Assembly (NCBI RefSeq): GCF_964204645.1
Contig: NC_134034.1
Location: forward strand, 6,732,914 to 6,796,913
Origin: Tubulanus polymorphus
Lineage: Eukaryota > Animalia > Nemertea
Direction: 5' to 3'
Length of the DNA stretch: 64,000 bases
This document shows, one piece after another, positions 660-40,738 of this stretch. Numbering within the stretch: the first letter of the stretch is position 1; each line of letters opens with the position of its first letter. A program made the position numbers and the translations under genes. The notes beneath the pieces were generated by a model, which made no database searches, was not told the origin of the DNA, and saw only the letters and a program-made list of their open reading frames with translations.

Positions 660-1272
660 TTAAATAAATTCATATTTAAATGGGTGTTGTAATCTAAATA
701 GTAATTTTGATCTTTTAATATTTTTCAATTTATCCATATATTCATTATCTAAATCATGTGGAATAATATCATTTTCCTCAAGTGCATTTTTCATCGATTT
801 TCTATCTTAATTGTATGTAGAATAAAACTAGAAATCTTATATTCTCCCTAAAGTCTTTAACAATTGAATTATATTTTTGATTTAAAACCCATGTTGTTAT
901 CCCGAAATGTCTTCCAGAGAAAGCTAGATAACATAACTCGCTTTCTCTAACTTTTGAATCATGTAGATTTGCACAATCATCTATAATGAATAATGTATTT
1001 GATCCTTTATAAATATCAATTGCTATTTCAATACAATTATCTAAATTTTCTTTTACTGTTTTAGGATCTAATATAATAAATTTATTATTTCTAGTAATAT
1101 TTCTATCATAAGTTTGATTAAATTCGTACGTTGGGCAAAATAATACTATATTATCAAAATAGTTTTCATAAACAGTTTCTAATAAATTTAATATAAAATA
1201 AGTTTTTCCACAATTTGTTACGCCAGATATTAACATATTATGAGGCTCAAATATAAATAATTCCTTATTCAT
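660..1272 (-). pseudogene. A32/FtsK-HerA-like DNA packaging ATPase (3' end frameshifted)
   Basis: Walker A ISGVTNCGKT, Walker B LFIIDD, GRHFGI and NQKY motifs in ORF 802..1272. The C-terminus (DRKSMKNALEENDII...HPFKYEFI*) continues in another frame to a stop at 660. Confidence 0.9.
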
Positions 1273-2851
1273 TCATATATTTTTAATTTTACTTGATAAT
1301 ATCCATTCATTGAATTTATCTGGCCATCCAACCCATTTTACTAAAGAATATTTTTTTCTTTTAACAGTTTTTGTTTTTTATACTTTTTCAATTTTATATT
1401 CTTGTTCTAGATTTTTCAGTAGTTAGACTCAATTCTTCTTCATAAAAATACCCATAAACTTCTTCACCATCTAAATCTTCTAATTTATAGACATATGGTT
1501 TTGTTGTTATTACCTTTTTTATTTTATATATTTCTCTAGTAAAATTACGATCGTATCCTTTGTCAAATATCTTTTTATACTTAGAAATTCTAACATTTTG
1601 ACCAACTTTAAATTTAGGTTCACCAAAATCATCTACAAGAAATGCTCCATATAAATTATTCCAAACAATTTCAGCATTTTCAGGTTTTCTAGCATCAATA
1701 GGTCTCATTCCAATACAAGAATGATAAGAATTATTATATCCTTCTATCAATTTTGGTAAAACATCAATCCATTTTAAAGTATTATTTGCTGTAAAATATT
1801 TCCACATTCTTGTTCTTAATGTTCTATTAAATCGTTCAACAACTGCTGCTTTTTTATCCGATTTTGTTGAAAAATATTCAATATTATGATTATCTAAGAG
1901 TTCATGAACAAGTGAATTATCAAATTCTTTTCCATCATCAAATTGTATTTTTTCTGGTTTTAGTTTATCATCCGAAAGAAATTTTCTTAAAACATTTGAT
2001 GTTTGTACAGCATCTTTTCTATAAAGTGGGAAACTCCATACATAACGACTAAAAATATCAATTATATTCAATAACCACCAATAACCATCATTATCTTTCT
2101 TAACATTTTTCATATCAATTAAATCTCCTTGCCACTGTTGATCTACACAGGGAAGTGTGATGAGATGGAATACGGACGCTTTTAATTGCCGGATGTAGGC
2201 TATTCAATTCAGCCCGTACATCAAAGGTTACCGCAACAGCAGTAAGCTACGCTTATCGAGTGTGTGTTACCAGCTGAACACCAGTCAACATCAACTTTGA
2301 TTTGCTCGCAGAACAACCCGCAATAGTTTTAGCCCGATAAATGTTCTGCGATCGATACTACGCATGCGCACTGCAGTTCATTGAACAACGTGGAAGTGGC
2401 TGTGTATACACATATTTTTCTTTAGAAAATCGGTTGAAATTCAACAATTTCTCGAAAAATTTGTCCAAAAAGGTATGTATTTTTATTCTTCTATATCTCC
2501 GAAACCCGGTATCGGAACATTAAGTATTTATATTGTGATTAAAGTCTGTTTTTACGTGTTAAACATATGTTTTTGCCAGTTCGTTCCGATTCCGGGTTTA
2601 GCGTTATTTGGGCCTTGAAGATGTCAAATATTTCGGCCCAGACTCGCGCAGCTTTCGTTTCTGACGTCATGTTGCTATGTTACGACACAAACATATACAC
2701 GAAGTATGATCTTTAAAATGTGTATTTACTACATAATAATGTTACTTAATAACGCTTACATTAGGCCTACAAGTTATTGTCCCCCATATAAACCAAGTTT
2801 TCTAAATAGCATCAGCAATCTCATTTAATTAACCTTTTCTTATTTTTAGTC

Positions 2852-3184
2852 ATGGATCTTTGTCGATTGTGTGGAAAAAATGCAAAACCTCCGGATCATC
2901 GTCCTATCGATAAAAATAATTTCAAAAGCCATGTGAAGGAGTTGTTCAACATTGATTTTGATGATGATACTGAACAGTACCCGATATATATCTGTTATAT
3001 GTGTCGTGTCAAATTACAAAAATGGCGTAAGAACGAAAACGTTAAAAAAACTGTCCCTGTGACTATCAAATTAAAACAATGGACATGTAAACCACTGGTT
3101 AATTCCAAGTCTGGACGGCGACGTATTTGTAGTCAAAATTTTATCGATCGATTTTCCATAATGTACTGCTGCCATTCCATTTGA
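2852..3184 (+). pseudogene. Truncated zinc-finger ORF (CxxC...CxxC; RAG1 N-terminal/Chapaev- or ZAD-like) inside the TIR element
   Basis: LCRLCG...LFNIDFDDDTEQYPIYICYMC, preceded by a polypyrimidine-AG acceptor at ~2849. Confidence 0.55.
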
Positions 3185-3794
3185 ACTGAATTTAAATACT
3201 CGATGGTTAATCACTTCAGTCATAGCCTTTTCCAAATATATAGTGTTCCTGCAAAAATAATAATAATGATTATTATTTTAACATGTACTTATCTGGATTT
3301 TTTATATTATGTTTATATATTATTTTCTGTATTCGTTTATTATTTTATAACCTAAAAGGATTGTATTGATTATAAAAATAAATGTAAAAAATACCTGTAT
3401 GTGTGTTTTCTCGTGATCAGATCGCAGTCTCTGGTCAGCTGAGCCTGAGAAGTACCTATATGAAAAAGAAAAGGAAAGAATAAAGTGCCTGCAATTAGGT
3501 GGAAACTATTCCGATATTACATTGATTCAAAAGGAATAACACTCACTAGAATCGGCCGAATTAGTTGATCCTGATCCAGAGGATTCCCGTAATATTTCCG
3601 TATCGATCTGAACCAATTCGTCACTATCAAAGAATAGTTCGTCAAAATCGTCATCATTTATAATTTCGTTGACAACCGTTGCCATTTTAATACAGAGGAA
3701 AGAACCGATATCACGATTGATAAAACACTATCCGTCTGAAGCGATGTAGAGAGAATCGCACAATGATAACGAAAAAGTCCAAAAATGTTAGTAG

Positions 3795-3841
3795 TTTATT
3801 CAACGTTTCGTCTATGTCCTAATAGTCATCTTCAGAAATAA
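3795..3841 (-). ncRNA. Minimal type I hammerhead ribozyme (Penelope-type)
   Basis: Minus strand reads ttattt-CTGAAGA-tgactattaggacataga-CGAAAC-GTT-gaataa: core boxes, stem I ttattt/gaataa, stem II ctat/atag and palindromic AACGTT stem III. Confidence 0.6.
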
Positions 3842-4583
3842 TGAATACTACAGAAATTATGAGAGATATATACAATCCAGAGACAAAGAGACTATTTCAA
3901 GTAATCAGAGATGATACAAACTAAAGGAAAATTAACGTAGAAACAGTTACACGCTAAAACAGATTAAAGAGAAGCAGTTAAGAGACAAACTAGGGGGCAC
4001 TTAAATTTAAGACAATTGTGAATACAAGTTGATCGACTAAAATTGATGAGGGGAAATCAGGTGTTGAGTTTAACCAGTTTACAGAGGAATTTTTATATAA
4101 GTTTATTATGGGATGAAAAACCGATATTCGGAAACAACTGAATTATTACGGAGATTCCCGATCTCGCTGGTTATCGCTTATCGGCGCGTTACGTAACAAA
4201 GCGCTCGCCGGCGAACCGTTATCGGCTTTAGGGCAATTACAACGCACATTCGACAAGAGCTGCACAATAGCGTCCGTATTCCATCTCATCACACTTCCCT
4301 GATCTACATAACTTACCATAGTTTTATATTTTCTAACAATTTTTTTATGTGTTGTGTATGTTGGTTGTTCTAACATAAATTCATTTATATCTTTATATTT
4401 AACTAAATTGTGTGGGATTATCTTATCTAATTTATCTTGTTTTACTTTACGCCATATATTTTTAGTAGAAGAATAAGCAACCGAACTCTCAGGGTTGTAA
4501 TATAAATTTCTTAAATATTGTTCTTTAGTATTAGGAGTTTTTTTACCTCCCATTTATATATCGTTAATTTTAACTTTATATTT

Positions 4584-5831
4584 CTAATATTGAATACTAT
4601 CTAACTGTGAATTTACAATATTTAATTGTGCATCAGATATAATATAAATGTGCATTTTAAAATTTTTGTCTCCTCTTTTCTTTTTCATGAATAATTGTAT
4701 TCCATCTTTAGTGTTCTGTAGTTTTTTCCCAGAACCATGTAATGAATTATCCTCTGTTGTTCTAAAATCTAACCATAATGCATATTTATTGCCGGTATAA
4801 TAATCAATTTGATTAATATTACAATTTTCAAATGATTTTACTTTTTCATTCATAAAATGTTTTCTAATTTCTGGCCACTGATCTATCATTCTCATTCCTT
4901 GACAAAATATTTTATTTGCTATTCCTTCGATAGTTATTTCTACTTTTGTTATTTCAGGATTATAATAATTATCTACCTTTATTGCACCATTAGAATATGT
5001 TGCAATGGTAAAAAATATTAATATACCTTTAATAGATCTTCTTGGGAAGTTAATATTCTCATTAATTATTTCATCATTTGCATTAATAGTTACAGTTTTA
5101 AATTTATCAATATAATCATATAATAATGAAAATCCTTGATTGTATTGAGTTTGAATTATACTAGCAATATTTTCATTAGTTACTGTGTTATATTCTAAAC
5201 ATATATTCGATAATTTATAACCCATATCTTTAACAACGCTAGATAATACAATTTCATTTACAGGAGCAAATGTTATCTCAAATATAATATCTTCTTGAAT
5301 TTTATATTTATATCAAGGTGCATTGTTATTTATCAATTCAAAGTCTAATGGAATTTTATATTTGCTTCCATAAATCTTTTTAATCAAATTATCTGTGGCA
5401 CGAGTTACTATTGCGTCATTAGCTCCTGATCTTAATTTATTATGGTTTTCCGATTGAATACCCTGAAATATCATATTATTTCTATTTTCTTTAGTTAACC
5501 ATAAATCTTTATAATGCATAAATAAATTATAATCATCTAATGAGAAAACTGTTTCTGGACCAATCTTTATAGTTAATTTTTTAATCAAATATCTCCCAAC
5601 ATTATCGACAACATAATTATTATCATGACCAGTTACTTTTATATCGGCTGATAAATAAATACTGTTTGGAACATAAAAAGTATTTTGTGTTAATCTAGGA
5701 ATTCTAACATATAAAGTTTCATCGGGATTAGTATTTGAAGGATTATGAGTAATTATATGATGTGATCTTTCTGCTTTAATAGCATTAGATATTCTAGAAA
5801 TCTTAGAAGGACTTATATAACTCCCACTCAT
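4584..5831 (-). pseudogene. Double jelly-roll major capsid protein (one internal stop)
   Basis: ORFs 5313..5831 and 4584..5225 are in the same frame, separated by one TGA (~415 aa total). Motifs HIITHNPS, LYVRIPRL, NVGRYLIKKL, PRRSIKGIL, YYNPEITKVEITIEG and ALWLDFRT...LHGSG are typical of invertebrate Polinton MCPs. Confidence 0.82.
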
Positions 5832-10107: not shown

Positions 10108-10866
10108 TTACTCTCTACATCTTATAACTAATTCATAAATTACAGGAAAGTTATTCAAATCAATTAAATATCCATTGTGATTTCTTATTTCTAATTTAAA
10201 ATTATTGAAATGTGGAATACAAGGTTTGAAATCACATTCAGTTAAATTATGATTTATTTGAGTTCCAAATTGTTTAACATTTTTTAATGGTAAAATATTT
10301 AATAAACCAGAATTACAAATTGTATCTTTAGTTGCTTCAAATGTTTTTGTTGGGTCAATCAAATTGCAATAAATATAAAAATGTGTAAAAGGTATTAAGT
10401 TTGATTTACCTTCTGCGTGTGCTGTAACAATATTTGGGTTAATTCCTAACAGTTTAGCTAAAGGTTTTCTTACTGTAAATTTAAATTGTTCGTTATTATC
10501 TAACCTAATCTTTATTTTATTAGAACTATCACTTTTTAAAATTCTAATACTAAATCCGGAATCACTTCCTAATTTAGCTCGAGCTTTTCTATTAATTTCT
10601 TGTGCTAATGTATCTAAATTATATAATCCTGGTTTTAAATATATAAAATACCATTCATTCATTTTTTTGTAAAAGATTGAAAAAATTAAATGTTCTAGAC
10701 TTTTATCCGATATATTGTAAAATGAGTTACATAAACTTATATTAACTAATTTTAAATCAACACAATTCTTAAATTCTCTATCTAATTGTACTAGTAAATT
10801 ATGTGATTTATAATTTGTAAGTTTTCTAGAATCAACAAATATTCTGTATTCTTTTAATTCTACCAT
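10108..10866 (-). CDS. Minor capsid protein (penton, single jelly-roll)
   Basis: IFVDSR..., ISLCNSFYNI, PGLYNL..LA..IN, LAKLLG, FYIYCNLI, LEIRNHNGYLIDLNNFPVIYEL pattern typical of Polinton/virophage mCPs. Confidence 0.78.
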   Translation of the reverse strand: MVELKEYRIFVDSRKLTNYKSHNLLVQLDREFKNCVDLKLVNISLCNSFYNISDKSLEHLIFSIFYKKMNEWYFIYLKPGLYNLDTLAQEINRKARAKLGSDSGFSIRILKSDSSNKIKIRLDNNEQFKFTVRKPLAKLLGINPNIVTAHAEGKSNLIPFTHFYIYCNLIDPTKTFEATKDTICNSGLLNILPLKNVKQFGTQINHNLTECDFKPCIPHFNNFKLEIRNHNGYLIDLNNFPVIYELVIRCRE

Positions 10867-10934
10867 TATTTATAACATAAAAAAATTACCGCTCATCACT
10901 AAAAATTAATTTAAATAAAATTTTTCCTTAATAA

Positions 10935-12251
10935 ATGGATGAGAAGATAGCATGCGAAATTTGTGGTGAACTTCTAAGAAAAAGTAATATGGCTCGACAT
11001 ACGAAAAAACATGATGAAAATTATAAACCCCCTAAAATAAACTGCCCAAAATGTAATAAATTATTCTCAAGAAATTATGTTAAAAAACATTCAGAGAAGT
11101 GTAAAATTAATGGCGCAACGGCTAATGTTGATAGTAACGAAAGTAATAGTAATTCTGCTGAAGTTGAACCTGAAGTTATTTGGAAAAGACCTTTCTTATT
11201 CTATGACAAGGATAATATAAAAGATCATTTCTGTAAGCCTTGTCGAATAAAATATAGCCCTGAAAATATAGAAGATTGGGAGAATCATCAATTTCGTAAA
11301 GTACATATAGATAAAATTTCTAATAAATTTGAAACTGAATTCAATGAAAGAAAAGATAATTTATTAGAAAAAATAAAATATGAGAAAACGTTACCAGATA
11401 ATAAAGAAACAGTTGAAAAGTTAGAAAAACAATATAATGAATTAACAAGAAAAACATATTATTGTAAATATTGTAAATTGATTATTACAACAAGTAATTC
11501 AAATCTACATAATAGAACAATAAAACATAAAGAAAACGTAAGAAAATACCAAGAGCTTAATGATGATCTATTACCAATAAATTATAAACAAAAATGTCCA
11601 CAATGTAGTTATGCGACCTTAAGACAAGAAGGTACTGTGTTATTTTGTAATGAATGTGGATGGCAAAAGAATTTATTGGGTGAAGAAAAAACTAGAAATT
11701 TTCTCATAGATCCAAAATTAAATTATCTTGATGAAATTTTTAAAATATTTTCTATAGAAGATCATACACCAGAATATATGCAATGGCTTGAAAAAATGAA
11801 AATAATAGAAAATAAAAATGGTGAAATAACTAAAAAAGATATTATAAAAACAATTATTCCGTCAACATTTAACACAAAAGAAAAGAAAATGTATTTATAT
11901 TTATTATTTAACGATTATTATGAAAAACCTAAATTAACAGAAGAAGATATGAAAAATATAAAAAAAATATTCAAACAAATATTAATGTATCATTTGGAAA
12001 ATAGAATAACAGATTCAATTAATTATGAATTCTTTTTAAATAAGATTGTAAATTATTTAAACATAAATATTATAATTCCATTTGATGAATTAACAAACAA
12101 AAAGAAACAAAGAGAGCGAGATGAAATGTGGAACAAGATAGAACTTTATTTAAATGAGAAAAATGGAATGGAAGAAGAACCTGAACAATTAAATGGAAAT
12201 GAAGAAGCCAATAGTGATTTCGATTATGATGATATTGATTTTATGTTTTAA
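10935..12251 (+). CDS. C2H2 zinc-finger protein with C-terminal poxvirus VLTF3 (A2L)-like domain
   Basis: Intact 438-aa ORF. N-terminal CxxC..H..H fingers. From aa ~221: CPQC-x13-CNEC zinc ribbon, NFLIDPKLNYLDEIF, KIFKQILMYHLEN..SINYEFFLNKI and DEMWNKI, matching recalled VLTF3 motifs. Confidence 0.75.
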   Translation: MDEKIACEICGELLRKSNMARHTKKHDENYKPPKINCPKCNKLFSRNYVKKHSEKCKINGATANVDSNESNSNSAEVEPEVIWKRPFLFYDKDNIKDHFCKPCRIKYSPENIEDWENHQFRKVHIDKISNKFETEFNERKDNLLEKIKYEKTLPDNKETVEKLEKQYNELTRKTYYCKYCKLIITTSNSNLHNRTIKHKENVRKYQELNDDLLPINYKQKCPQCSYATLRQEGTVLFCNECGWQKNLLGEEKTRNFLIDPKLNYLDEIFKIFSIEDHTPEYMQWLEKMKIIENKNGEITKKDIIKTIIPSTFNTKEKKMYLYLLFNDYYEKPKLTEEDMKNIKKIFKQILMYHLENRITDSINYEFFLNKIVNYLNINIIIPFDELTNKKKQRERDEMWNKIELYLNEKNGMEEEPEQLNGNEEANSDFDYDDIDFMF

Positions 12252-15200
12252 TAACCATAAGGTAATGTTTTTATTCCATCATCCAAAATATGTCTTTTAT
12301 CATCAAATGGATTTAAACTAGTTTTTTCAACTTCATTAATGTACATCTCGTGATCTTCTGACCTTAAACAATTCTTTTTATGTTCCATTACAATTGATTT
12401 ATATAAACACTTTATATAATCTTGAAATTCTATATGTTTATCAACCACATGTTTTGTTATTCCTTTTAACTTTTTAGCTTCATGATCTTTTGTTCTGTAA
12501 CTATACATTTTACTTCTTATCCCAACAAATTCAATCATTTCATCTCCCCCTTATTCATCTTTAAATTTACCAGGAATCTTTTTATTATCATTGCTAAATA
12601 GTTCATGATCTTTGGGATAATTGCTAAAATCAAAATAATGTTTTAATGTTTTTAAGTCTTTTGTTATATCATTTGTCTTGATTTTTAGTATGTAGGCGTC
12701 CGTATTTTTGGCTATTAATGGAAATCCACAGTTAAATGTGCCATCTTCAGTTGATAAGGTTACATATTTCAAATAAATCTTTAACTTCTTCTGTTAACTC
12801 ATTTTCTACATGGCTTAAATTAAAGCAATTTGGTTGAGATTTAATCAATCCAATATTCATATTAAAACCTAATGAATTGCATAATATATTTAATCCTGAT
12901 ATAGCAACTTTTCCTTTTTGAGCTGAAGATATTGTTTTGCGGTTTTTGAAACTTTTAGTACCATCTGCTGCGTAGAATCCAATGAAGAACCATTTTCTTA
13001 AATTATCTTTTGCATTTAATACATAATCTGGAACTATCTTTTCTTTTGTTGAAGTATTACTTTTAACTATTGCATGAATATAGAATTCATCATTATATTT
13101 TATAGCAAAATCTTTAGGATTATTTACAAGTATTCTATAAACTGCTGTTGATTTCATATGATCCACGATTCTAAATATTTTATGTGAATAAACTTCTTCA
13201 CAAAATTTCTTTGTTCTTTCTAATAATATTAAGTCTTGATTGCATAAATACCAGCAATATTGAGTGCGATTAACATAATTATACACACCTGCTGAACCAT
13301 CTCCCATGAAAAATCCTTTGATAAAATATTCTTTTTCATCCAATGTTTCGGGTTCTATATTATAAATATTATCAATTATTTCATCAAATGACATATGATT
13401 CATTCTTTGGAAAAATCTTTTATGTAATAATTCATCTCCAATTTTTATATCAGTTGGATTTATTTCATCACCATTTCGTTTAATTAAACTATGATCTTCT
13501 GTAACATCTACAAACCCTAATTTAATTCTAACTCTATAAATTTTCTTATTTGTTTTATGCCTAATAATTCTTTAATTTGTTCCATCCATTTCTTGTCCAA
13601 ATATCCATTAAACCATTTATTTGTATTAATTCTTTTTCACCATATGAAATATAACATTCATTTTGTTTTGGAATTATTTCTGAAATTCTTCTAATCAATA
13701 TTTTATCATTACATTTTAATAATATTGGGGTGTTAGCTGTTACAGAATCAAAATATAATATTTCAATATGCTTTTCCCCAAAAAGTGGTTGTAAAACATT
13801 ATAATAAAAATCATACATTAATAATTTTGATACTTCTAAAACAGTTGAACCAATGAATATAGGTTTATTAAATTTCATTGACGTTCTTTTTAATTTAACT
13901 GCTGTTAAATAATCTTCAAATCTTTTATTTCCTAAATGTCTAGGACTTGATTGTAAATGTCTTAATCGTTCAGAATTATTTACTAATTCAATATCATTTC
14001 TATTTCTAATATTTTCACATGTTTACCATAAAAACTATTATTCATTAATTTGAAGAAATCTTTTTCAAAATCTGTTTTTGATATTGTTCTCTGTTGAGTA
14101 TTGAAATCTATATATTTTTCTAACCACTTCGATTGATTAAATTCAATATATCTATGTACTTTCTTTAATTTCATTCCTTGTTTTAGATAAAATTTTAACA
14201 TTCTATAATGAACAATATAATTGTTTTTATTATTTTGAGTAAGAATTAATTTTTCTGTAAAAACATGATCATTCGGTTTTATTTTCTTCTGGTATTCACT
14301 TAAATAACTATCATCTACAGTTAAATGTTCTGGGCAATAAGGTAAGTTTCTTGTTTTAAACTTTATATTTTCAGGATATTCTAAATCAACTACAAAGAAA
14401 TAACCAATTGGTGCTTCATCTTCTAAACTCATAATTGCGCTTTCCCAATTAGTTTTATCATCATTTTCAACTTCTGTTAATATAAAATTTCTCCCATAAC
14501 ACCACTAATTCCACCTCTAATTGATTTTTCAAATAATAAAACCATGTCTGGTTCTTTTAATAAATCTAATTCTACATTTGTATATTTTAAACCACATTGC
14601 CAGGTTAAACCAGGACTAGAGTAGCAATAACAAGGATCAACATTAAAATGATTCAAATTAACTTCTCTAAATTTTTCAAATATGTCAGCCAATATCATAA
14701 CATCTGATTTTAAATATAAATCAACTAATTCACCATGATTTTTCATCTTAAAATGGTTCCAAATATTCAATGTTCTATTAAACACTTCGTCTTTCACATA
14801 CTCCTCTTTTAATTGATCATAAAATTGATCTTTTAATAATTCTGTTACATTATAATCATTGTGTGTTTTATAAAATGAATAAGGAATTGCACCTTTATAT
14901 CTCAATAATTTAAAATCTTGTTCATTTGGATAATAATATCGAGTTATAACAAAATCATTATCAACTAAACTTTTTGATAAATTATCTAATGAACTTGCTA
15001 GAAATCTATAAGAATCTAAAAATCTAATGCAACCAAATTGAAATGAAATATAATTTTCAGATGTTTTAGCTAATAGTTTAAAATCATATTTTCTTACATT
15101 TGCTTCATTCATAGCATTATATTCTTCTATTTCTTGATTAATTGCGCCCAATTTTCCCGATAATTGTTTTATAAATAGATGGGTATCATAGCCTGATAAA

Positions 15201-17199
15201 TTATGAAATAATATTGGTACGAAATTTACTTTTTTAGCTTGTAAATTGCAATCTTCATGAGCAGCTCCACGATATTTTGAATTTAAATGATCATGATCTC
15301 TAACTTTTTTATCAAATGAATAAAAACGTTTTTCACAATAACAACAATGAGTTGCATAATTAAAATCAATTTCATCTTCTTTTGTCATAACTATTCTTTT
15401 ATTTTTGTTTAATAATTTTGCAAAATCACTTTCTAATTCAATCATTTTGTCACAAAAATCATTAACTACATTTTCACCTCTAAAAGAAATATATTGACTT
15501 TCATATAATTCAGGATAGTTTGATTTTATGTAAATTCCATAAGCAGCAGCTCTTTGATGAACTTTTTTAATTGTATTTATAATTGGTGGGTCTTGAATTA
15601 TATCTTCATTTAATTCATTTCCTTTATCCATTGATTTTAATAATTGCTTTTTGTTATATATTTCTTTTCTATCTTGATCAGTTAATTCTTTATTCAACGA
15701 TTCAAAATCCCCATAAATTACAAATGGAATAATATTTTTAAATTTATGATTAGTAAATTTCAACTTACAATCTTTTTTTGTTGGCATTATTAATTTACAA
15801 AAATCTTTATTATCACATAATTCTTTATGTTTTAATAATGTGTTCTCAGTCATAAATTTAGATAAACATTTTCTACATAGATAAATTTTATTATGGTGAT
15901 CACTTTCTGTTCTAAAGAATAAATCAATTTCTTTTAACCACATATAATGTTCATTTTCTTCTTTTTTGTAATATAACAAATCTATAGCACTTTCATCATC
16001 ATAATACTCTGTTAAATATAAAGCTTCCAATGTATAATCTTTAATATTTTCACCTTTTGTCTTTGGTAATTGCATTAATTCGAATACATTTATTTTTAAA
16101 TTATTAACTTTTTCTATCTTAGGAATCATTTTTATAGTTACTGGATATTGATCAATTTTATATAATGTTTCATATTTCCGGTAATTTGTTATTCTAAAAC
16201 TATGTGTAATATCTTCTGTTGGGTGTAAACAACTAATAATTGACGATAGAAAACATTTATTATCTTCATTTTGAACATTTATTACTGCTTTTGTTGTAAA
16301 TGGTAATTTAATATAAGATGATGCTTTAATATCCTTTTCTGTTGTAAAGTTTGAATCATTCTTAAACATTTTATTACTTTTTGATGTTTTATTTCTTTTT
16401 GTATTATAAACATTTAAATCTAAATATATAATTTCATTCAATGTTAAGCCAGAACCCTCAAAATATCTTTCTTCAATATGACGTTTAAATTCATTAAATA
16501 TTTTTTCTAACTTCTCTTTTATTTGTGTTTTTGAAATTATTTCTTCAGAGTGAGTTTGAATATTATAATTCATTTTTTCTTCTGACTTTATAAAACTTAC
16601 TTTCCCAGAGATACTAATTTTTGGATATTCAACATCTGTTATCAAATCTAGTATTTTTTCTATTATTTCATTAAATTTACTATAATCTTCTATTGTTGTT
16701 CCTTTAAAGAATCTAAATATAATAGCTGCAGGACCAATTTTACTATGTAATGTTTCTAATATTTCAATTGTATCTTTTATTTCTAGTGAATCAATATAAT
16801 TTCTAACATTTTCCATGTAAGGTTTATTTGAATGGATTTAGTTTTTGAAGTTGGTTTTTTTACATTTTGAGGTTTATCATCGAAATAATCTTTTCCTAAA
16901 ACATTATTACTCAAATTTTGATGGTGTTTTTGTGATTCGAGATGTCTATTATAATTCCTTTTTACTATAAATTCATTACAAACTTCACATTTTATTTCAT
17001 CCACATTCATATTTTCTAATCGTTCTTTTCTTTCATTGGATTTTTCTGGAGTTTCAAAATCTATTACATTTTTTATATGATTTGCAGATTTTTCATGTTT
17101 AGATTTATTAGATTTATCGATGTATTTTTTACAATATGGGCAATAATATTGATTTTTATTAACATTATTGTTTTCTGTCTGGTACTCACTCTCTCCCAT
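12248..17199 (-). pseudogene. polB: Protein-primed family B DNA polymerase (pPolB), fragmented and intein-containing
   Basis: ORFs 16783..17199, 14477..16816, 13983..14432, 13561..13878, 12551..12772 and 12248..12538. Motifs SSYIKLP/INVQNEDNKCF, ExoI YGDFES, endonuclease-VII-like VRDHDH...AAHEDCNL, FHNLSGYD, RFLDS, YLKSDV, motif B KLMNNSFYGK, motif C YFD/TD, GKFKDE, EFVGIRSKMYS, KLKGI, PFDDKR. Motif A region is missing. Confidence 0.95.
12704..13746 (-). mobile_element. Intein with LAGLIDADG homing endonuclease inserted in pPolB motif C (pol-c site)
   Basis: N-extein ...LYFD | SVTANTPILL (block A) ... DVTEDHSL (block B, shifted frame) ... GFFMGDG and GFYAADG (LAGLIDADG helices) ... LSTEDGTFNCG..IAKN (blocks F/G) | TDAY C-extein. 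Two frameshifts. Confidence 0.93.
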
Positions 17200-17281
17200 T
17201 TATAAGGAAAAAAAATTACTTGTGGTGATGAGTGGTGTTTAGTACTCTAGTACTCTGGTATGAACCCCTATTCCAAATACT

Positions 17282-17882
17282 TGTTTAAATTTGAATGTAC
17301 TAATAATTATAAAGAATATAAATAAGAAAGATGATATTTCGGCTTACATTGTATATTACTATTTAGACAAAATTAAATATCGTTCATTATGGGAATTGTG
17401 TTCATTGGATAAATGAAAAGTCTAGGAATCAGGACCCCGGCTCTGCGTCGTGGTGCTGCGTTGGTTGCTCGTTCCCTTTTACGGCTGGCCGCAAGCAGGG
17501 TTCTGGATTTTTCTTGGGTGTGGACGCAGCCGTATAAAGGGGGCCGCACCTCGAGAGAGAGCGGACTATTTTAGAAAGCATTTTCAGGGGAAGCATTAGA
17601 AGACTATAGAACAGATTACTTTCGGCTATCCGGTTGAATTGCATCTTCTTGTGTGCGGGATTTGAAACAAAATTCTAAATTAAAAGGTAGGGAATTTTAT
17701 AAATTGTTGAGAGTAAAGTTCAATTTAAATTGTTAGAATAAAAGTTGAGTATTATCATATTTAAATCCGGAGTTCCTTTTATTCCTTGGTTTTCGGGTTT
17801 CTGTGTTCGTGGTCGACTTTCTCGCCAGGGACCGGAGTTTGTGAAAGAGGAAAAAGACAGTAGAGAAAGGGACCGCGGAACA
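17282..17882 (+). repeat. 5' LTR (start tentative, end ...GGAACA firm)
   Basis: Ends in CA at 17882, three bases before the PBS. TATA-like TATAAA at ~17533 and AATAAA at ~17737. Confidence 0.7.
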
Positions 17883-17885
17883 TAT

Positions 17886-17903
17886 TGGTGCCGAAACCCG
17901 GGA
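17886..17903 (+). promoter_or_regulatory. Primer-binding site complementary to the tRNA-Phe 3' end
   Basis: TGGTGCCGAAACCCGGGA is the reverse complement of the eukaryotic tRNA-Phe 3' terminus. Confidence 0.9.
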
Positions 17904-18425
17904 ACTCCGGAATAATATATAATAAATTATCTACTTTAAATTCCAATTTAAATAACACAAAAAATTTCTGAATTTCTTATACGATAGTATTATATATGAT
18001 TTCTGAATTATGGATGAAGATATCATAGAGGCCCAAGAAACCTATGATTTTCTGTTAGAAGTATTTACGGATGGCCTATACGGTCTCTATTGGGCGGAGC
18101 AGGATGCGAACGCATCCGGGGACGAGGAAACATTTGAGCTTATTGTAAATGCTAATGGGCCAAAATTAAGGCACCTTCGAAATTGCCTCGTAGAAACCGC
18201 GGAAGTGCTGGGTAAAGAGCACAAGGACCCCTCATGGGCGGAAAGCTCTAGGTTTAATGCGATGATCTTTCAATAAATTTCATACATTGGCATTATTCAT
18301 ACGAATTTTAGGGATAATAATAATAATTATATAATGATAATAATAATAATAGTAATATCAGTTAGAATATCGGTAATAGTAATAATAATTTCAACAATAT
18401 AAATTTTGAACGAATTTTTTTTACA

Positions 18426-19601
18426 ATGACGACTCGAAGTCGGGCCCAAGGGGATCCGGGTACGGCTGCTGATAGTTCGGTCAGCAATGACACAGTCATG
18501 CGGGCGCTGACCGGGCTTCAGGGGCAGATGGGCTCGGCAGCAGCGTTTGTAAATTACAGCCTCCTTCCGAAATTCACAGGCCGGGACAATCAAGATGTGG
18601 ATGAATGGTTTAGGGGATTTGATAGGCTTGCTGAGCTCAGAGGCTGGACCGCTGAGGTAAAAAAGAAACAGATTTTCTGGTTTCTGTCCGGACCAGCTTT
18701 GGTCCTTTTCAACGATCTACACATCGATCAAGAAACTGATGTGGCTGGCAACTTAAAAATTACCCCTTGGGATGATATCGTTGCTGCTTTCATAAAACAG
18801 TTTAGCCCGACAACTTGGGCCATAGTCAGGGAATCTGCCCTGACAACCATGAAACAGGGGGAGGGGCAACCAATTGACCAATCTGCTGAGGACATCGATC
18901 GGATGGCCTCTAGCTTAAAGTTCTCTGATCACCAGAAGAAAATTTTGTTAATTAACAACTCGAAACCGGAAATTTCCTTTTATCCGCTGTCCCAGCGGCC
19001 CGCTACTTTTAGAGATGCCTGGGAGGCCGGTAGGATGGCAGAACACATAGAGAAAAAGAAGAAAACTACCCCCTCGGTTAATCAGCTTGAGGCAAGCCCG
19101 AATCAGGAGGTACGAGAAGTCATGGCTGAATTGCGTGACATGTTTAAACAACTCATGTCAACTCAGAATAGGGATTCGAACCCTAGACGCCATGACCAGC
19201 ATGAGAGGGGAGTATCTCCAGATGAAAGGCGATCTCTACAGAGATCAAGCGGAGGGAGCGTGATTTGTTACCGCTGCCACGCCCCGGGACATTACGCCCG
19301 TAACTGCCCTACCTGGCAAGTGGATCAGGGATATCAGAGGCGCCCAGATGACAGAAATCTTAATAATTCTAGCCCGGCAAACTCTAGACGTTATTATAAC
19401 AATAGAAGATTTAGCAATCAACGCACAGGTTTGAATTGGCCAAATCAGGGAAACGCCATGGGACCTCATCCTGTAGGAGACCAGCAAGGGTGGGGTCGAA
19501 CCACCATAAATGGTCGCCCTAGTGTAGCCAACGAACATCCTATGAGGAATGGCCGCCCAGTGACGAATCGACAATACGGCCCGCAACAAATGCGTCGCTA
19601 G
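18426..19601 (+). CDS. gag: Gag with CCHC zinc knuckle
   Basis: LPKFTGRDNQDVDEWF capsid motif, MKQGEGQ, and CYRCHAPGHYARNC. Confidence 0.9.
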   Translation: MTTRSRAQGDPGTAADSSVSNDTVMRALTGLQGQMGSAAAFVNYSLLPKFTGRDNQDVDEWFRGFDRLAELRGWTAEVKKKQIFWFLSGPALVLFNDLHIDQETDVAGNLKITPWDDIVAAFIKQFSPTTWAIVRESALTTMKQGEGQPIDQSAEDIDRMASSLKFSDHQKKILLINNSKPEISFYPLSQRPATFRDAWEAGRMAEHIEKKKKTTPSVNQLEASPNQEVREVMAELRDMFKQLMSTQNRDSNPRRHDQHERGVSPDERRSLQRSSGGSVICYRCHAPGHYARNCPTWQVDQGYQRRPDDRNLNNSSPANSRRYYNNRRFSNQRTGLNWPNQGNAMGPHPVGDQQGWGRTTINGRPSVANEHPMRNGRPVTNRQYGPQQMRR

Positions 19602-19986
19602 GGGAATCTGATTTCTGGTGGGATGATAGTTACTACTATCAACACTCGTATTACGATGATTCTTCCTGTAGAAATGATGATTTTTATAATGAGGACAGGT
19701 ATTTCTCGTCGCAATCGTGTTTAGATGATTGCGAATTATTTGATCCATCAGAATATGTTCAGGACTTGGAAACTGATTGGACTGATTCCTATTATTTTGA
19801 TGAAACTGAACTTAAAGATTATTCTGGAACGTTCTCTGAGTGTCGGACACCCTCGTGGGGGGCAGATCATGTTTATAACGGTCAAGACAAAGAATCTGAA
19901 TTTGAAAATGACTTAAAAGAAGATAAAGTTCGATTTAAGGATAAATTCTATGGAGAAGGGCATAAAAAGTCACATTTTGTGATCCG

Positions 19987-22900
19987 GTGGTTATAGATGA
20001 GATTCAAACGAATAAATCATGCCTTAATGTGTGTTATGACAGTAGGCCGCGCTGCAGTCTGAATGTCGATCCGGGGTTTTCGACGACTGGCGACGGTATG
20101 CGGGAACAGGGTTTTCGGATAATTAAGGGGCATGAAGTCGCGCAACAGAGTTGCCCAGCGACAGTTGAATCAGCGGTACAATGCGAAATTATGCCTTCAA
20201 ATAATAATGATCGCAAGGTAAAATACCCAGAGAGTGGTAGAATAGTAAATCAGGGTGTAGTTGAAGATACAAATCAGTCCGAATTGAAGACACTAAGGTC
20301 AGCGGAAGCTGCCTTCTGCCAAAAAGAGGCTGAATTAGCTCACACATTTTCGCAGGAAGAATCTTTTAATTTTTCTCGACCGAATGAGAGTTCGGATAAT
20401 GGGTTGTATGAGTGTAACAAGGGAAGTGACTTGGTTCAAGACGAGTTTGTCGTAGACTCAGAGGCCGAAAAGGACGAGTCGACACGTTACACAGAGGTTT
20501 TTAGTGGAGTTTCTGCCTCCTCCGCAACCGACGAACAGGACGGGGTTACCCAGAACTATTTTCCGTCAATAATGGCTACTGTTGCTAATCGGGTAGTTGG
20601 TCATCATTCTGGTATACCACTTAATATTCTTATTGACACCGGCGCGGAAATATCAGTTTTAAATAGTGGTTGTTTACATAGAAATCCGCAGATTCAGTCA
20701 GGTGAAACGCGAGAAGGACTATTCCATTCCGCTCGTGGGGTAGATGGTAGTAAGTTTAACTTGCGAGGATTAGTAGACATAAACTTTCAGCTGGGTTATC
20801 TAGATCTCACCCATTCTATGTATATTGTCGATGACGTGAGCTCCGATGTTATTCTCGGAGCAGACTTCCTGGAACAGCAACATGCTGTTATTGATTACGG
20901 CAAGAAAGCTCTCCGGCTGCCAGGTGCCGACACAATCCATTTTAGTAGCAATACAGTCAATCTAGGAAAACCCTCGACAGTTAAAGTGACCGAAATGACA
21001 ATTGTCCCACCTTCGTGTGAAGTAATTCGAACGGGAACTGTTCGTCGGACAAACCTCCAGCGCCGTTTGCTGTATTTGAGCCATCTAACCATCTTCGCAC
21101 TCAGGATTTGTTAGGCGCTAGGTCAGTAGTTGATGTCACTTCAACAGGGATTCCCTTTAGAGTCATGAACCCTACATCCCGACATGTGACCTTGTATGAG
21201 GGTACGTGCTTGGGTCATTAAATGGACAGAGGGATGGACGGTCAATCAGCCGCTGTCAACTAAGGGGGATTTTGGCCAGCTTCCAAGGCCACCGGAGGCC
21301 AATTTTACTCAGGTTAACGAGCCGCAGACATCAGCTGACATAGGACTACCTGAGATCGATCTAGTCAAGTCAGACCTGACCCCATCACAACGAACGAAAC
21401 TTCTTAAGTTACTGCACTCGTACAAAGATGTTTTTGCTAGGTCCGCAGAGGAATTGGGTAAGACGGACTTTGTCAAACACGTTATAGACACTGGAGATGC
21501 ACCCCCTATTCGGAAGAGGCCATATAGGGCAACCCCTCGTATGCATGAAGTCATCGACACTCATGTAAAACAAATGTTGGACTATGGAATTGTTCAATAT
21601 AGTACGAGCCCTTGGGCTGCCCCAGTGGTATTAGTCCAGAAAAAGAGCCCAGACGGCGAGGTCAAGTGGCGATTTTGTGTAGATTATAGAGGACTCAATG
21701 CTGTCACTCGGACTGATTCTTTTCCCTTGCCAAGGATTGACGATTTATTAGCTCAAGTTGGACAGGCATAACCGAGATATTTTAGCTCACTCGACCTCTT
21801 GAGCGGTTATTGGCAGGTTGGTGTAGATGAAGCTAGCAGAGAAAAGACTGCATTTATAACTCAAACTGGTCTGCTAGAATTCAAGGTATTGCCTTTCGGT
21901 TTGAAATCAGCTCCATCGACTTTTCAAAGACTTACGGGTGGTCTTCTTAGGAATTTGATCGGGAAATTTTGCCTTGTATACCTAGATGATATTATCTGCT
22001 ATTCAGACTCGTTCGACTCCCACTTAGAACATTTGGCGCGAATTTTTGATCGTTTCCGAGCGTCAGGGCTTCGTCTGAACCCTAAGAAGTGCTACTTCGC
22101 ACTCAAGGAAATCAAGTTCTTAGGTCACCGTTTATCAAAAAACGGCATTGCTACCGACCCCGAAAAAGTAGCAGCGGTCCAGAACTGGCCCATTAAAACC
22201 ACCCTAAAACAACTGCGCAGCTTTCTTGGGTTTACCAATTACTATAGGCGATTCTGTAAGGGCTATAGTACTATAGCCGCGCCGCTCCATAATCTAACCA
22301 AGAAAAGTGTTCCATATAAATGGGATGCTGCATGTCAACGAGCGTTTGACACCTTGAAACAAGCGATGCTCGAAGTTCCTATTCTGGCCTATCCCATATA
22401 TGGGGGAGCTCCATTTTTACTATATACGGATGCCTCTGACGATGGCATTGGCATGGTATTAGCACAGGTTCAGGAGGGTACCGAGAGAGCAATCACATAT
22501 GCAGGGTGTGGGTTAACAAAAGCCGAAAAGAATTACTCCACCACGGACCGTGCTTCTCGTAGTAGCGGCAGGAGTTCGGAAATTCGAACCCTATCTGAGG
22601 GGATATCACTTTGAAATAATAACTGACCATAGCTGTCTCCAATATCTAAAATCAATGAAGAATTTGTCGGGTCGTTTGGGTCGCATAGCGCTTTATCTTG
22701 AACAGTTTGATTATTCTATCTCTCATCGTCCGGGGAAATCGCACGGCAATGCTGACGGTCTATCGCGGAGACCGTATCCTGAGCCCCAGATCGAAGAGGA
22801 CACGATTGAGGCATGCGCGGTACAAGCCGAAAATCGAGATCCGATTCCAAACGACATGTCTGTAAATCAACGGTCTGATCCGAATCTGCTGAATATCATT

Positions 22901-24508
22901 AATTATCTAGCCGACAGCTCCTTACCGGAAGAGGACAAGGAGGCCAGAGAAATCCTGTTGTCGTCAGACAACTACTTCTTGGATGACGAAGGGCTACTCT
23001 ATCATGTGGACTCAAAGAAAAAGATAGAGGCAGATGGTCCGCGACAACTATTGATCCCCAAAAATATGCGCACCGAAATTCTAGAAGCAGGTTATGATTC
23101 AATTACCGGTGGTCACTTGGGACATAAGAGGACCTATGAGACATTAAGAGCTAGGTATTATTGGTCGGGTATGTACAAAGACGTAGAAAAGTGGATCAAA
23201 TCTTGTAGAGACTGTGCAACCAAAAATAAGCCGGGAAAGCCCATACGAGCCCCAGTTAATCCGATCGCTGTCACTGGACCATGGGACAGGGTCTCAATGG
23301 ATGTATGTGGTCCATTTCCAACAACTGTTTCAGGGAATAAGTATATTCTAGTTTTCGTTGATTATCTTACAAAATGGGTCAAAGCATTTGCTATGAAAGA
23401 CCAAGAGGCAGCCACAGTTGCTAGAATATTTTATGAGCAAATCATTTGCCGACGCGGGGCCCCATCTGTGTTACAGAGCGACCAGAGGAACCAATTTCTT
23501 GAGGAAGTTGATGAATGAGGTGTCGCGACTCTGTAATACTCCTCGGGCTCGCTCTAGTGCTTATAGACCACAGACTCAAGGTCAAGTTGAGCACATGAAT
23601 TTGGTTATAGTCAAGGCTTTAAGCATGTATTGTAACGACCGTCAGACAGATTGGGATACGTACTTGGATCCAATCCTTTTTGCGTACAGGGTTAGTCCAG
23701 CGTCAAACACACCACAATATTCTCCGTTTTTTTTTAAATGTACGGTCGAGAGCCAAAACTCCCAATGGATGTTGCTCTTCTCAACCCGAAAGATGTCTAC
23801 TTTGACGCAGGAGGTTTTGTTCAGGCCATGTTACCGAAGTTGAAAGAAGCCATGAAATTAGCCAGAGATAACATCAAAAGGGCTCAAGAAAGGATGAAGG
23901 AACGTTTTGATAGAACGGCAGTCCCGCCAACTTTTGACGTAGGTGACCAAGTCTTAGTTTTCACACCAAAGAAAGTAAAAGGGCTGAGTAAGAAACTCTT
24001 ACATCAATGGACTGGTCCGTATCGGGTTGTTCGAAAGCTTTCTCCTGTTTCTTTCATCTTAGAGGACGAAAACAATAAGGAATTAGCAGTGCCGATTCAT
24101 TGTAATCGGATGAGATACTTCTTCTCTACTAACATTCGACCGTTGGACAGGATCGACGACGATATCGATAATGGGAACGATGGTGACCAGGACGAGGATC
24201 ACCCAGACGACCAGCCAAATAATTTGACAGACGACCATGGGGGATCAAATGAATATCCCGGACAGGCTCTGCCAGACAAACCAACTACGAGTGGCGTGGA
24301 GCCTGTCTACTACGTAGAAAAGATTATTCGTCACAAGAAAGAAAAGGTAATTTTGAAATACCTCATCAAATGGGTTGGTTATGACAACAAGGACAATACG
24401 TTTGAGCCAGCTGAAAACTTGAACCCAGAAGTTATTAGAGCCTATTGGGATGACTTAGCGGCTAGGTCTAAGTCCAGGGGTCGGAAAACTAAAAATAGGC
24501 GCCGATAG
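19987..24508 (+). pseudogene. pol: Pol polyprotein (protease, RT, RNase H, integrase, chromodomain), multiple frameshifts/stops
   Basis: ILIDTGA protease; [13 protein letters not shown] and YLDD RT; LYTDAS and HGNADGLSR RNase H; GHLG...CRDC and VFVDYLTKW integrase; WTGPY; YYVEKIIRH...YLIKWVGYDNKDNTFEPAENL chromodomain. Confidence 0.93.
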
Positions 24509-24568
24509 AAGGACGACGACTGTTCCAAAGTTTGCCATATTGACGTGGCTCATTGTTATCTTTTCAGA

Positions 24569-26178
24569 ATGCAGGTTGTGCTCGTACTACTGGTTCTTTG
24601 GTTCGCCCAAGCTTATGGGTCCACGCCAGCTACAGTTTTGAGGCCGAACTACGGTGCGGCTTTTCACAGAATAGGTGGAGTGCATAACAGGGATAGTGCG
24701 TGGTTCCACACGTTTGCGATACCGTGGCTGGTAGTCGACGATTCCGTGTATTCCGTGGTCCTTATGCCGGTCCCAATAAACGCCACATCATATAACACTT
24801 CAATGATCGTGGGGACGCCCCCGTATTTTGGCGCGACCAGGGATGGTAACTATTATACAGAAATGGGCCATGATATCTTTTCCACTTGTCATGGTACTGA
24901 TGTGATGACTTGCCCGCAGCGCGTCTCCATGCGCGAAATTACCGTTGATTCGTGCCTAAGTAGTCTTTTCTTCGACAGGCCCTCGCGGGTGTTAGCGCTA
25001 TGTCACATAAGGTACGAGGTCGGGGGCCTCGCCGAACTAGCGGCTGATGTGGGCGACGGCTTTTTCCTCGTATCAGGCAGTGATGACTTTTGGACTCTCG
25101 CATGCCCCGGCAAGTCACCACAAGCGATTCCAGCATGTCGTTTTTGCTTAATTAAAATTGGTTGTGCATGTGCATTGCGGGGTTCAACGTTTTATGTCCC
25201 TGGTCGAATTAATAAATGCATAAAAAAGGACACTGTAACTATTGCACACGCTGTGAACCTTCCCGTCCTTCATAGTTTCTTCGGGAAAAATGCAGTTTCG
25301 AATGTTACTGGAGCGCCGATGTTCCAGGGTACACCATACGCATCGCTGCCTGTTTTGGATTTAAAACCAACAATTGGTCAAAGGTAGCGGCAGTTGATAC
25401 TAAATTTAGTATGGATTTTAAGAAACTGGCCCAAACTGTCAGTCAAGAGTCAAAACTTTACCGTTCCCAAGCCGATGCATTATTTGTATACCAGGAGCCA
25501 GTTATTTCAAATGGTGGTGGCACTGGTTGGATGACTTGGCTTGCAATAGGTCTATCCGCAGGTAGCATGTTACTGTCGATATTTGTTTTGTTGAAATCTC
25601 AAGGGTTAATACCAGTGTTGGGAGCAGGATTTCTTCCGCCCGCTCAAGCCATGGTCACAGTTCACCCCTCTATTCACGATTTACGTTCTGGAGGTTGGAA
25701 TAATTCAGTTATCAAGGAAGTGGTCATGGCTGAAAATATTCGGGTGGATGTTGTTCTGTTTTTGTTAATCGTAGTGGGAATTTTGATAATTGTTTTTCGA
25801 CCGTCGTTACGTGCTTTATTTTATAGATGCAGGCATTGGTTACCTGCAGCATGCTCGCCTGGTAAGTATCCAGTTAGATTGATGCTGCGAATTAAGAATG
25901 GAATACATAGTCTCGATTTACCTTTACTAACGCTGTCTGGATGTAAATCTGAATGTTATTTAGAGCCACCAGCTCTTACTAGAGTCGCCTTACAGGTCAC
26001 TTGTGGGGTTGCTCGATTGAATTTAACTTGGCACGAAAAACAAATGACCTGTTCACAAGGGACGGTTTATAATTTACCAAAATCATGCTCGGTGCCTCTG
26101 AAGATAAGTCTGTTTGAAATGAGGCAGATGTTATCGGTATCTAGTAAAGCAATCGTTAGGCTAATTATCGTTCGTTGA
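24569..26178 (+). pseudogene. env: Envelope-like glycoprotein (signal peptide, Cys-rich ectodomain, TM helices), frameshifted
   Basis: MQVVLVLLVLWFAQAYG signal, RPNYGAAF...WFHTFAIP, Cys-rich block, and TM segments in ORF 25411..26178. Position is downstream of pol. Confidence 0.72.
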
Positions 26179-26402
26179 GTGTGGAACTGAGAGAAGCGGC
26201 AAAACTCGTAGTGTCATCAGTTGAACCTGAAATTGTCGCTGTTGACGTTGAAGCTCACACCGACAGTCAACAACCGAGCATTCTGGTCCAAATGAGGGTC
26301 GTCTCTATCCACGTCTTTATTGAGATTTTGAATCACTTAGTAACATCGCATTTGGAGGAATCAGTGTTATACTCTCCTCGCGATGTTAATATTCTGAAGA
26401 AC

Positions 26403-26645
26403 TGCATCTTCTTGTGTGCGGGATTTGTAAAAAAATTCTAAATTAAAAGGTAGGGAATTTCATAAATTGTTGAGACTAAAGTTCAATTTAAATTGTTAGA
26501 ATAAAAGTTGAGTATTATTATATTTAAATCCGGAGTTCCTTTTATTCCTTGGTTTTCGGGTTTCTGTGTTCGTGGTCGACTTTCTCGCCAGGGACCGGAG
26601 TTTGTGATAGAGGAAAAAGACAGTAGAGAAAGGGACCGCGGAACA
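26403..26645 (+). repeat. 3' LTR, 5'-truncated (PPT/U3 missing)
   Basis: Near-identical to 17640-17882; ends ...GGAACA. Confidence 0.88.
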
Positions 26646-39475: not shown

Positions 39476-40461
39476 TTATAGTTTTCCGGATTGTTTCAAA
39501 AAATACGTAGCAAGGTGCCTCTTATCACCAAACATCTTAGCATGTTGCACATGACAATTTGCCATATGTTCACCGGTACAATTGAATGGCTTGTATGCAA
39601 GTCGAAGGTCAGGATCGATTCCATGCAAAATGTGAACGTCACTGAATTGCACAAACATATCCATTATAGTCGATGATGACCCTTCATTTCTACCATTGTG
39701 TGATTTATTATCCGCAGCAAGGAAATCACTTGCGTAAAAACTAGCATGTTCCGCCGAATGCGTATTGAAATATCCGTTGTCTTTGTGCACATCAAAGTTA
39801 GTACTATTGTTGCCAGTGAATCTCGGATCATACTGCCAAAAACCGATTGGAAAAAACACCTGTTGCCCACGAATTGTATTGATACGAACACGGTTCACGA
39901 ATTGTAAATTCATATGCATAGTAACTGAGCCCAGAAACATGATGGAGTCAATCATTGCTTTTTTGGCAATCACTCCTCGGATGACAGAAAATGGGCCAGA
40001 CACTTCGTCTAGTAGCACCCATTTCAAGCAGTTGTCATATGCATCGATGATGAACCTATATGTCTGTAAAATTTCAGGTCTTTCAAAAACCATCATCAAA
40101 TCTACATTGGTTCCAGTTTTACAAAACTCGAATAAATACGTCGTAAGAAAGTGATACAGCTGATCCTTCACGGCCAAGCTTACTGCAATGATGACAGTAA
40201 CATGCGTCGTCTCCGTAACGTACTGTATTGGTACAAGCTCAACGTGGTTTAGTGGACGGATGAGATTGGCATGATGAATGATGGAACACTTTTTCTGGGA
40301 GTCATACATTTCTACATCAACCATGTATTCTATCCCCCGAGATGGATCAAAGCGCCGATAACCATTCACCAAACGCGTGTAATGTAGGTGGTTACCAAAC
40401 TGATCCTGCAGTGTCAAAAAAGTTTTGTTCAAAATACTTGAGATGTCTATTTCGTCGATCC
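39476..40461 (-). CDS. CHPF: Chondroitin polymerizing factor (chondroitin sulfate synthase 2)-like, last coding exon
   Basis: LVNGYRRFDPSRGIEY, RPLNHVELVPIQYVTE, QVFFPIGFWQYDP, GYFNTHSAEHASFYASDF. Acceptor tttttgtAG at 40462-40463. Confidence 0.9.
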
Positions 40462-40738
40462 CTACAAAAAATAAACAAATGTAATGATCATTGGTTGATA
40501 TGTCGTTACTATGGTGCCCTTTAATGTAACTGTGTTTGTTGTGAATTTTCAAGCACATTAATAGTGTATCCTGAGTAAGGGGCTGCAACTTGTTGAAATA
40601 TTGATATGAAAAACTAGATCAGAGTTGCCACTACTGAAGATACAACTGGGTCAGCAGCTCAGCAACTAGGAGGGTGGTCTATCTTTAAAAGCTGACGACT
40701 GATGCATGGGGAGGAATGAATGCGCAAGCAACAAATGT

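Follow-up and report, generated by a model that had tools for sequence, protein, structure and literature searches.

The window analysed here, a stretch of DNA of 64,000 nucleotides, harbors an intein within the gene of a protein-primed family B DNA polymerase (pPolB). This intein is genuine and represents a known allele, pol-c, in a new host protein family and a new host kingdom. The gene that bears it belongs to an integrated virus-like element, a Polinton, and not to the animal itself. It is highly probable that the intact relatives of this intein splice and are likely to home between copies of the element, and that the copy in the window is a relic. The finding widens the range of pol-c inteins, known from RNA-primed polymerases, to polymerases that are protein-primed and to elements that animals inherit in their DNA.

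The intein, its host gene and the Polinton

The intein occupies positions 12704..13746 of the minus strand and is comprised of a Hint splicing domain and a LAGLIDADG endonuclease with two motifs. It is 1043 nt long and is found in three frame pieces upon three-frame translation, this copy having two breaks. As the original prediction had it, motif C of the polymerase is split exactly (YFD/S...KN/TDA, the slashes marking the junctions), with Ser1 at 13746, the terminal Asn ending at 12704 and Thr at +1. The other motifs named in that prediction are borne out by translation and by alignment with intact inteins. Block A with Ser1 (13723..13746) directly follows the YFD of motif C. Downstream on the same strand lie block B, the TxxH motif VTEDHSL (13485..13505); LAGLIDADG motif 1 or block C, GFFMGDG (13296..13316); LAGLIDADG motif 2 or block E, GFYAADG (12960..12980), which is also matched by Pfam; and the end of block F with block G and the terminal Asn, followed by Thr+1 (12704..12757). 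The block names and the class 1 mechanism discussed below follow the available part of PMC7765530.

The first break, seen in translation, is a frame change at 13566..13570 between blocks A and B, and the second, seen in translation and alignment, lies within block F at 12758..12767. Blocks A, B, C, E, H and G can be aligned with those of intact inteins. The class 1 residues Ser1, TxxH of block B, terminal Asn and Thr+1 are all found. The predicted KN end is present, but the predicted block F is interrupted by the second break and lacks its Asp, which is present in all eight intact comparators. The KN end, with its missing penultimate His, is no special feature: it is normal for this family, KN ending 136 and HN 85 of 270 rows of inteins of RNA-primed PolBs (rPolBs), near-duplicates included.

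The search with Hint and LAGLIDADG profiles that had been suggested gives support of two kinds. The 274-residue middle piece matches Pfam LAGLIDADG_3 above the cut-off (25.7 bits against 22.5) and Intein_splicing below it (22.9 against 35.8; E 8e-5), its top PDB sequence match being PI-PkoII (E 7.6e-6), and the structural model of an intact relative matches inteins by Foldseek. Profile, alignment and Foldseek together confirm two LAGLIDADG helices with an acidic catalytic residue in a fold of the I-DmoI/PI type. The GC content of the intein (0.25) is close to that of the exteins (0.23-0.26) and thus gives no sign of a recent foreign insert.

The N-extein (13747..17199, minus strand), identified by Pfam and BLAST, belongs to a Polinton pPolB of the beta type (group 1). 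It is split into several frame pieces and has a zinc-finger N-terminus and an endonuclease VII-like insert (a weak match, below cut-off). The C-extein (12248..12703, minus strand) contains an in-frame stop near 12552 and is 84% and 72% identical to P0132, an intein-less pPolB. Overall, the five extein pieces are 65-84% identical to P0132, 52-62% to the intein carrier P0001 and 29-48% to a Mytilus edulis protein. BLAST finds no significant match of the exteins to three NCLDV-type (RNA-primed) PolBs (best E 2.3) or to the alpha-type carrier P0003. Significant matches are to Polinton pPolBs only, which upholds the predicted identity of the host gene as a Polinton pPolB and not an NCLDV PolB. The labels beta and alpha, in the scheme of PMC8502044 (available part), were assigned from motifs, the absence of a mutual BLAST match and the strength of the PF03175 match (E 9e-32 for P0003 against 5e-17 for P0001). 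Both frameshifts predicted in the intein are real, yet the polymerase gene is broken elsewhere too, at no fewer than four places (~16830, ~14490, ~14020 and the stop near 12552). With breaks in both intein and polymerase, the window copy is dead.

The AT-rich element spans positions 1 to ~17240, with a GC content of ~0.23 against ~0.45 outside. The Polinton/adintovirus genes for pPolB, rve integrase and packaging ATPase are present. On the minus strand, the ATPase lies at 802..1272 (Pox_A32, E 4e-13), the integrase at 1394..4553 (Pfam) and a likely major capsid protein, in two pieces, at 4584..5831 (Capsid_N, E 0.0012, weak and below cut-off). The integrase gene is split by a DNA transposon of 2.15 kb (2148-4301), whose inverted ends are 36 nt long and which is flanked by a 7-nt direct repeat; a zf-AD ORF lies within it at 2810-3184. 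The left end of the element is beyond the window, and the right end is apparently truncated near 17238. A chromodomain Gypsy LTR retrotransposon (17636..26645, plus strand) adjoins the truncated end as part of the host context. It is followed by LINE, hAT and further retroelement remnants and then by an exon of a host gene of the chondroitin synthase family (39476..40618, minus strand; CHGN, E 3e-63). The nearest Atlas clusters of this exon are from chordates and arthropods, which points to an animal host.

Copies with and without the intein

Four sequencing runs of one species contain 36-52% of the sampled words of the window. A marine run with only a small share, X5, was left aside as a guide to habitat, and a presumed RNA run, X8, gave no reads on the window, which speaks neither for nor against expression. 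About 12% of one raw-read run, X6, from another sample and another study of the same species, was read. It yields 25,991 reads on 9500-19500, 21,888 of them 90-99% alike, and hence many diverged copies of the element. The mean depth at the 80% setting is 226 inside the intein and 548 in its flanks (ratio 0.41), corresponding to ~12-230 intein copies if the genome is 0.1-2 Gb in size. In two joint rows, 72 reads (43 + 29, with 26 + 20 starts) lack a net 1043 nt, exactly the length of the intein, and 129 further reads depart from the sequence of the window at the intein site. The intein-minus joint is seen in X6 only and is not among the joints listed for the contig runs X1 and X3. At the break sites (13566..13570 and others), many reads from other copies have a different length or sequence, so that the breaks are not common to all copies. 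Copies with the intein and copies precisely without it coexist in the reads of this species.

Hundreds of reads from other copies continue into different sequence at 17192-17238, so that the end of this copy is unlike that of its family; element ends appear variable among copies.

A second family, cluster P0141, has 136 members, of which 40 were read and 15 listed, on contigs of up to 1.0 Mb. Seven of the 15 contain an intact intein, all as unbroken ORFs of 1537-1539 residues, and six are empty. The survey of plus and minus alleles proposed with the original prediction thus finds both kinds here as well as in X6. The exteins of the plus alleles are 97-99% identical to those of five of the six empty alleles and 94% to the last. 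With six more empty alleles from two neighboring clusters, seven plus alleles were compared with 12 minus alleles at the protein level. Only 10 of 1198 columns are diagnostic, and all lie within -6 to +44 of the intein site (Fisher p 6e-13). Of the 20 residues at the site, 8-9 are different between an empty and a plus allele, against 3-12 of ~1030 upstream residues for the closest eight alleles. Four diagnostic residues fall at +23 to +44 (4/35 against 3/1031, p 3e-5). At motif C itself, the empty alleles have at least three variants, and the plus alleles share a single one, which resembles that of other families. This local patch fits a homing-type signature, which may be either a conversion tract or an escape by the empty alleles.

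Related inteins, their origin and known systems

At least 12 other protein clusters have an intein in a pPolB, and in six of them (P0001, P0002, P0003, P0141, P0455 and P0456) both intein ends are in one ORF. P0003 is a carrier from the other, alpha-type, pPolB class. Among the best 120 of 217 matches of the intein search, at least eight, including the top four, are pPolBs with an intein at motif C, and the best 120 of 809 in a later intein search added P0455 and P0456. The best 120 of 3466 matches of a pPolB search include three carriers, 114 proteins without an insert and three that end early. In these 120, motif C has Cys between the catalytic Asps in 30 and an Ala variant in 11 (D-C-D-S, D-T-D-A); such variants are unusual for family B polymerases and might be an escape from the endonuclease.

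The window intein is 58% identical to that of P0001, 44-47% to those of P0002, P0003 and P0141, and 37-38% to those of P0455 and P0456; the best viral intein reaches 38% and that of Mimivirus 35%. The clade as a whole is 35-44% identical to viral pol-c inteins. The alpha-type P0003 intein is 44-46% identical to the inteins of beta carriers, with exteins that have no significant BLAST match. Ser1, TxxH, the terminal Asn, Thr+1 and both LAGLIDADG motifs are kept in all seven aligned pPolB carriers. The Intein_splicing cut-off is passed by the intact relatives P0141 (37.7) and P0002 (42.4) and missed by P0001, P0003, P0455 and P0456. An AlphaFold model of the intact P0001 intein, from a 52-row alignment, has a pLDDT of 92.5. 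Its best Foldseek matches are endonuclease-bearing inteins, namely TliVMA (E 8.8e-18, TM 0.66), PI-PkoII, PI-PfuI and PI-SceI. On motifs and modeled fold, the intact relatives are predicted to self-splice.

Other collections gave mostly viral rPolB inteins. There are no pPolB carriers among 37 intein loci in viral contigs (flanks of 31 examined), among the best 80 of 235 loci in metagenome contigs, or among the best 150 of 2692 matches of a 50%-representative search (24 scanned with Pfam, ~20 flanks unparsed). An extein scan of viral contigs found three loci, with an empty motif C in both readable ones. The phage collection gave one match of 25.6%, to the intein only, and the Atlas clusters matched by an intact intein were all of a generic LAGLIDADG or intein kind. 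Topoisomerase II proteins (P0005, P0056, P0105, P0113, P0317, P0438, P0442 and L108) carry inteins of this broad family between D and S of TEGD and TDxD motifs, another non-allelic spread. A related intein is found at a D/S...N/TD site in P0114, a protein of 1137 residues with no polymerase Pfam match.

For the trees, 313 inteins were extracted, of which 237 of 300-400 residues were thinned to 127, and trees of 67, 44 and 45 rows were computed. In each of them, a single branch separates the pPolB inteins from the rest (support 99, 100/100 and 100/100), with the alpha carrier inside the beta carriers on starred branches; AU tests do not reject a beta-only clade (p 0.082 and 0.167). The sister group differs, the clade being nested among viral inteins in the 67- and 44-row trees and part of a basal polytomy, with a stem of 0.59, in the 45-row tree. 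The proposed tree with NCLDV pol-c inteins thus gives a firm pPolB clade and a nesting that varies. A GFP-type C-terminus is common to the pPolB inteins and one viral subclade, and their union is not rejected (AU p 0.447). The nearest relatives are also inserted at the pol-c site YxD/TDS (as defined in PMC549080, available part). Because the clade shifts between trees, donor and direction are left to inference; as there is no sound outgroup, direction rests on parsimony, viral pol-c inteins being numerous and diverse and pPolB carriers rare. What was predicted as a jump into a Polinton pPolB is a Polinton-wide intein clade and not a single jump in this copy.

The pol-c inteins of Mimivirus PolB and others (PMC549080, available part) share with the pPolB inteins the motif C site, Ser1, Asn and Thr+1 and near-identical blocks B, C and E, and the sizes are similar (345-354 residues against 351 in Mimivirus). 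The predicted likeness to Mimivirus holds for the motifs given, which are exact, but Mimivirus is not the closest relative: its intein is 35% identical to the window copy (37-39% to the intact carriers), against 44-58% identity of other pPolB inteins to the window copy. Unlike the Mimivirus intein, those described here reside in a protein-primed PolB, form a clade of their own and are part of an element integrated into animal DNA. The HNH and VSR inserts of Polinton pPolB2 (available parts of PMC10748475 and PMC11071308) are likewise nuclease domains in Polinton polymerases. They have no reported Hint domain, whereas the window case is a full intein in a catalytic motif. These inserts were suggested to stem from intein invasions (Krupovic 2024, PMC11071308, available part), for which the window intein is a concrete case. 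The available text of Jeong 2023 (PMC10748475) contains neither 'intein' nor 'LAGLIDADG', and that of Starrett 2021 (PMC8502044) does not mention an intein in the beta adintoviruses or group 1 Polintons, which share with this element the pPolB, rve integrase, ATPase, capsid-like gene and animal host.

According to surveys, inteins of eukaryotes occur in fungi, algae and protists and in large DNA viruses (PMC5784728 and PMC7765530, available parts). The available part of PMC10710043 describes inteins of Anaeramoeba and others that sit in viral-like DNA polymerase genes, on scaffolds of the nuclear genomes of Klebsormidium, Tetrabaena and a labyrinthulomycete, and proposes for them a viral origin and non-allelic spread. 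There too the nuclear genome was reached inside a viral polymerase gene. Those hosts are algae and protists; here the host is an animal, the carrier a multi-copy Polinton, and both plus and minus alleles occur. The inteins of Chilo iridescent virus and others (PMC549080 and PMC5784728, available parts) are also from animal viruses, but from free large DNA viruses, in contrast to an element inherited in an animal genome. Full-text searches of the literature brought up no account of an intein with a Hint domain in any pPolB, Polinton or animal genome. Inteins are generally regarded as absent from animal nuclear genes; the gene in question is that of the element and not of the animal. The intein may serve to mark the exchange of genes between Polintons and giant viruses. 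With its many copies and its nearly identical alleles with and without the intein, the system is a natural setting for direct tests of homing, co-conversion and target-site escape. The case also bears on the passage of an intein from one gene to another when the two have only a motif of six residues in common, which was considered unlikely to happen in a single step (PMC549080, available part).

Mechanism, alternatives and surroundings of the element

The insert splits YxD/TDx exactly at the pol-c site. Class 1 splicing by Ser1, the block-B Thr and His, the block-F Asp, Asn and Thr+1 would, judging from motifs and fold, rebuild the active site, and an intact element would presumably be unable to replicate without it. 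The endonuclease would cut motif C in a different Polinton copy that lacks the intein; repair templated by a copy with the intein would then convert the cut copy and, with it, a short flanking stretch. Alleles with and without the intein are found side by side both in this species and in the second family. A single entry into the pPolBs, from the pol-c pool of viral RNA-primed PolBs, may have been followed by gain and loss that kept the intein in beta-type lineages, and by its arrival in an alpha-type pPolB.

It is improbable that the intein is instead an old passenger, acquired a single time, passed down along with the polymerase, precisely lost in many lineages and no longer homing. This view agrees with the truncation of many carriers, with the presence of the intein in only three of the best 120 (of 3466) pPolBs and with the parallel identities of intein and extein among beta carriers (47% and 46-48%; 65% and 66-69%). 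Loss alone, however, does not explain a site patch that is 40% divergent between alleles 97-99% identical overall, and both LAGLIDADG motifs are retained in seven of seven aligned carriers, one pPolB carrier being of the alpha type. The parallel identities suggest old co-divergence as much as recent jumping, and make an old gain kept by short-range homing likely. The patch could also be target-site escape by the empty alleles instead of flank brought in with the intein. This is a tenable though tentative reading, and both processes may act; it alters the repair and conversion step and leaves the homing model unaffected. The three or more motif C variants of the 12 empty alleles, set against the one shared by seven plus alleles, and the Cys between the catalytic Asps in 30 of the best 120 (of 3466) pPolBs speak for escape, whereas the residues at +23 to +44 lie beyond a recognition site of 12-40 bp (PMC549080, available part) and fit a conversion tract.

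A source other than giant-virus PolB, whether an intein of phages, of archaea or of topoisomerase II, is unlikely for the clade, as is its being an ancient sister lineage. The basal polytomy and 0.59 stem of the 45-row tree, the lack of a reliable outgroup and the related inteins in topoisomerase II would allow it, but all the nearest relatives outside pPolBs are pol-c inteins of RNA-primed viral PolBs, the C-terminus is shared with a viral subclade (union p 0.447) and the sole phage match is 25.6%. That the domain stays unspliced as a fixed insert is very improbable: pPolBs with nuclease inserts that do not splice are known (PMC10748475, available part) and several carriers fall below the Pfam intein cut-off, yet such a domain would stand between the catalytic Asps of motif C, and the splicing residues Ser1, TxxH, Asn and Thr+1 are kept in seven of seven aligned carriers. 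Contaminant or misassembled giant-virus DNA, a concern of the original prediction, is more improbable still. The fall in GC from ~0.45 to 0.23 at the element and the absence of a long record bridging the junction at ~17240-17640 are outweighed by the Polinton-type exteins, the DNA transposon with its target duplication within the integrase gene, the same architecture intact in independent records, and the 25,991 mostly 90-99% alike reads from another sample and study, which cover element and flank and in which the element family is multi-copy.

The pPolB start codon is preceded by a T-run and lies in TAAATG (17195..17222, minus strand; motif count). The same arrangement is found at the minus-strand starts 357, 5831, 7302, 8704, 9155, 9570, 10091 and 17199, and TAAATG also at 4553 (minus) and 10935 (plus), giving 10 of 12 listed gene starts. 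T-run TAAATG occurs at eight element genes against 0.6 expected (maximum of three in 100 Markov controls), once in the remaining 46.6 kb of the window, and in none of the three related viral contigs. TAAATG marks poxvirus late gene starts (PMC4542343, available part); the available part of PMC11296320 contains no promoter analysis. By this analogy, the poxvirus-like starts are a lead, by inference only, to a Polinton that may live with a helper virus. A fuller picture is rather doubtful: a living animal intein system with a poxvirus-like late promoter and virophage-style replication alongside a large cytoplasmic DNA virus that would be the pol-c intein donor, homing among integrated copies giving rise to motif C escape variants and to crossing between alpha and beta types.

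Several minor features accompany the element and its surroundings. An AACTAG-rich repeat of 77 nt is present in three imperfect copies at 370-668, between two Polinton genes. The Gypsy element has an extra ORF after pol (24509-26178) with a signal-peptide-like start, cysteines and hydrophobic stretches, which is env-like and has no Pfam match. The retroelement remnants at 42440-44370 and 54569-57995 have overlapping RT and RNase H frames and, from their appearance, are presumably DIRS-like. A dispersed repeat family with 154-nt periodic units extends over 51258-63958.
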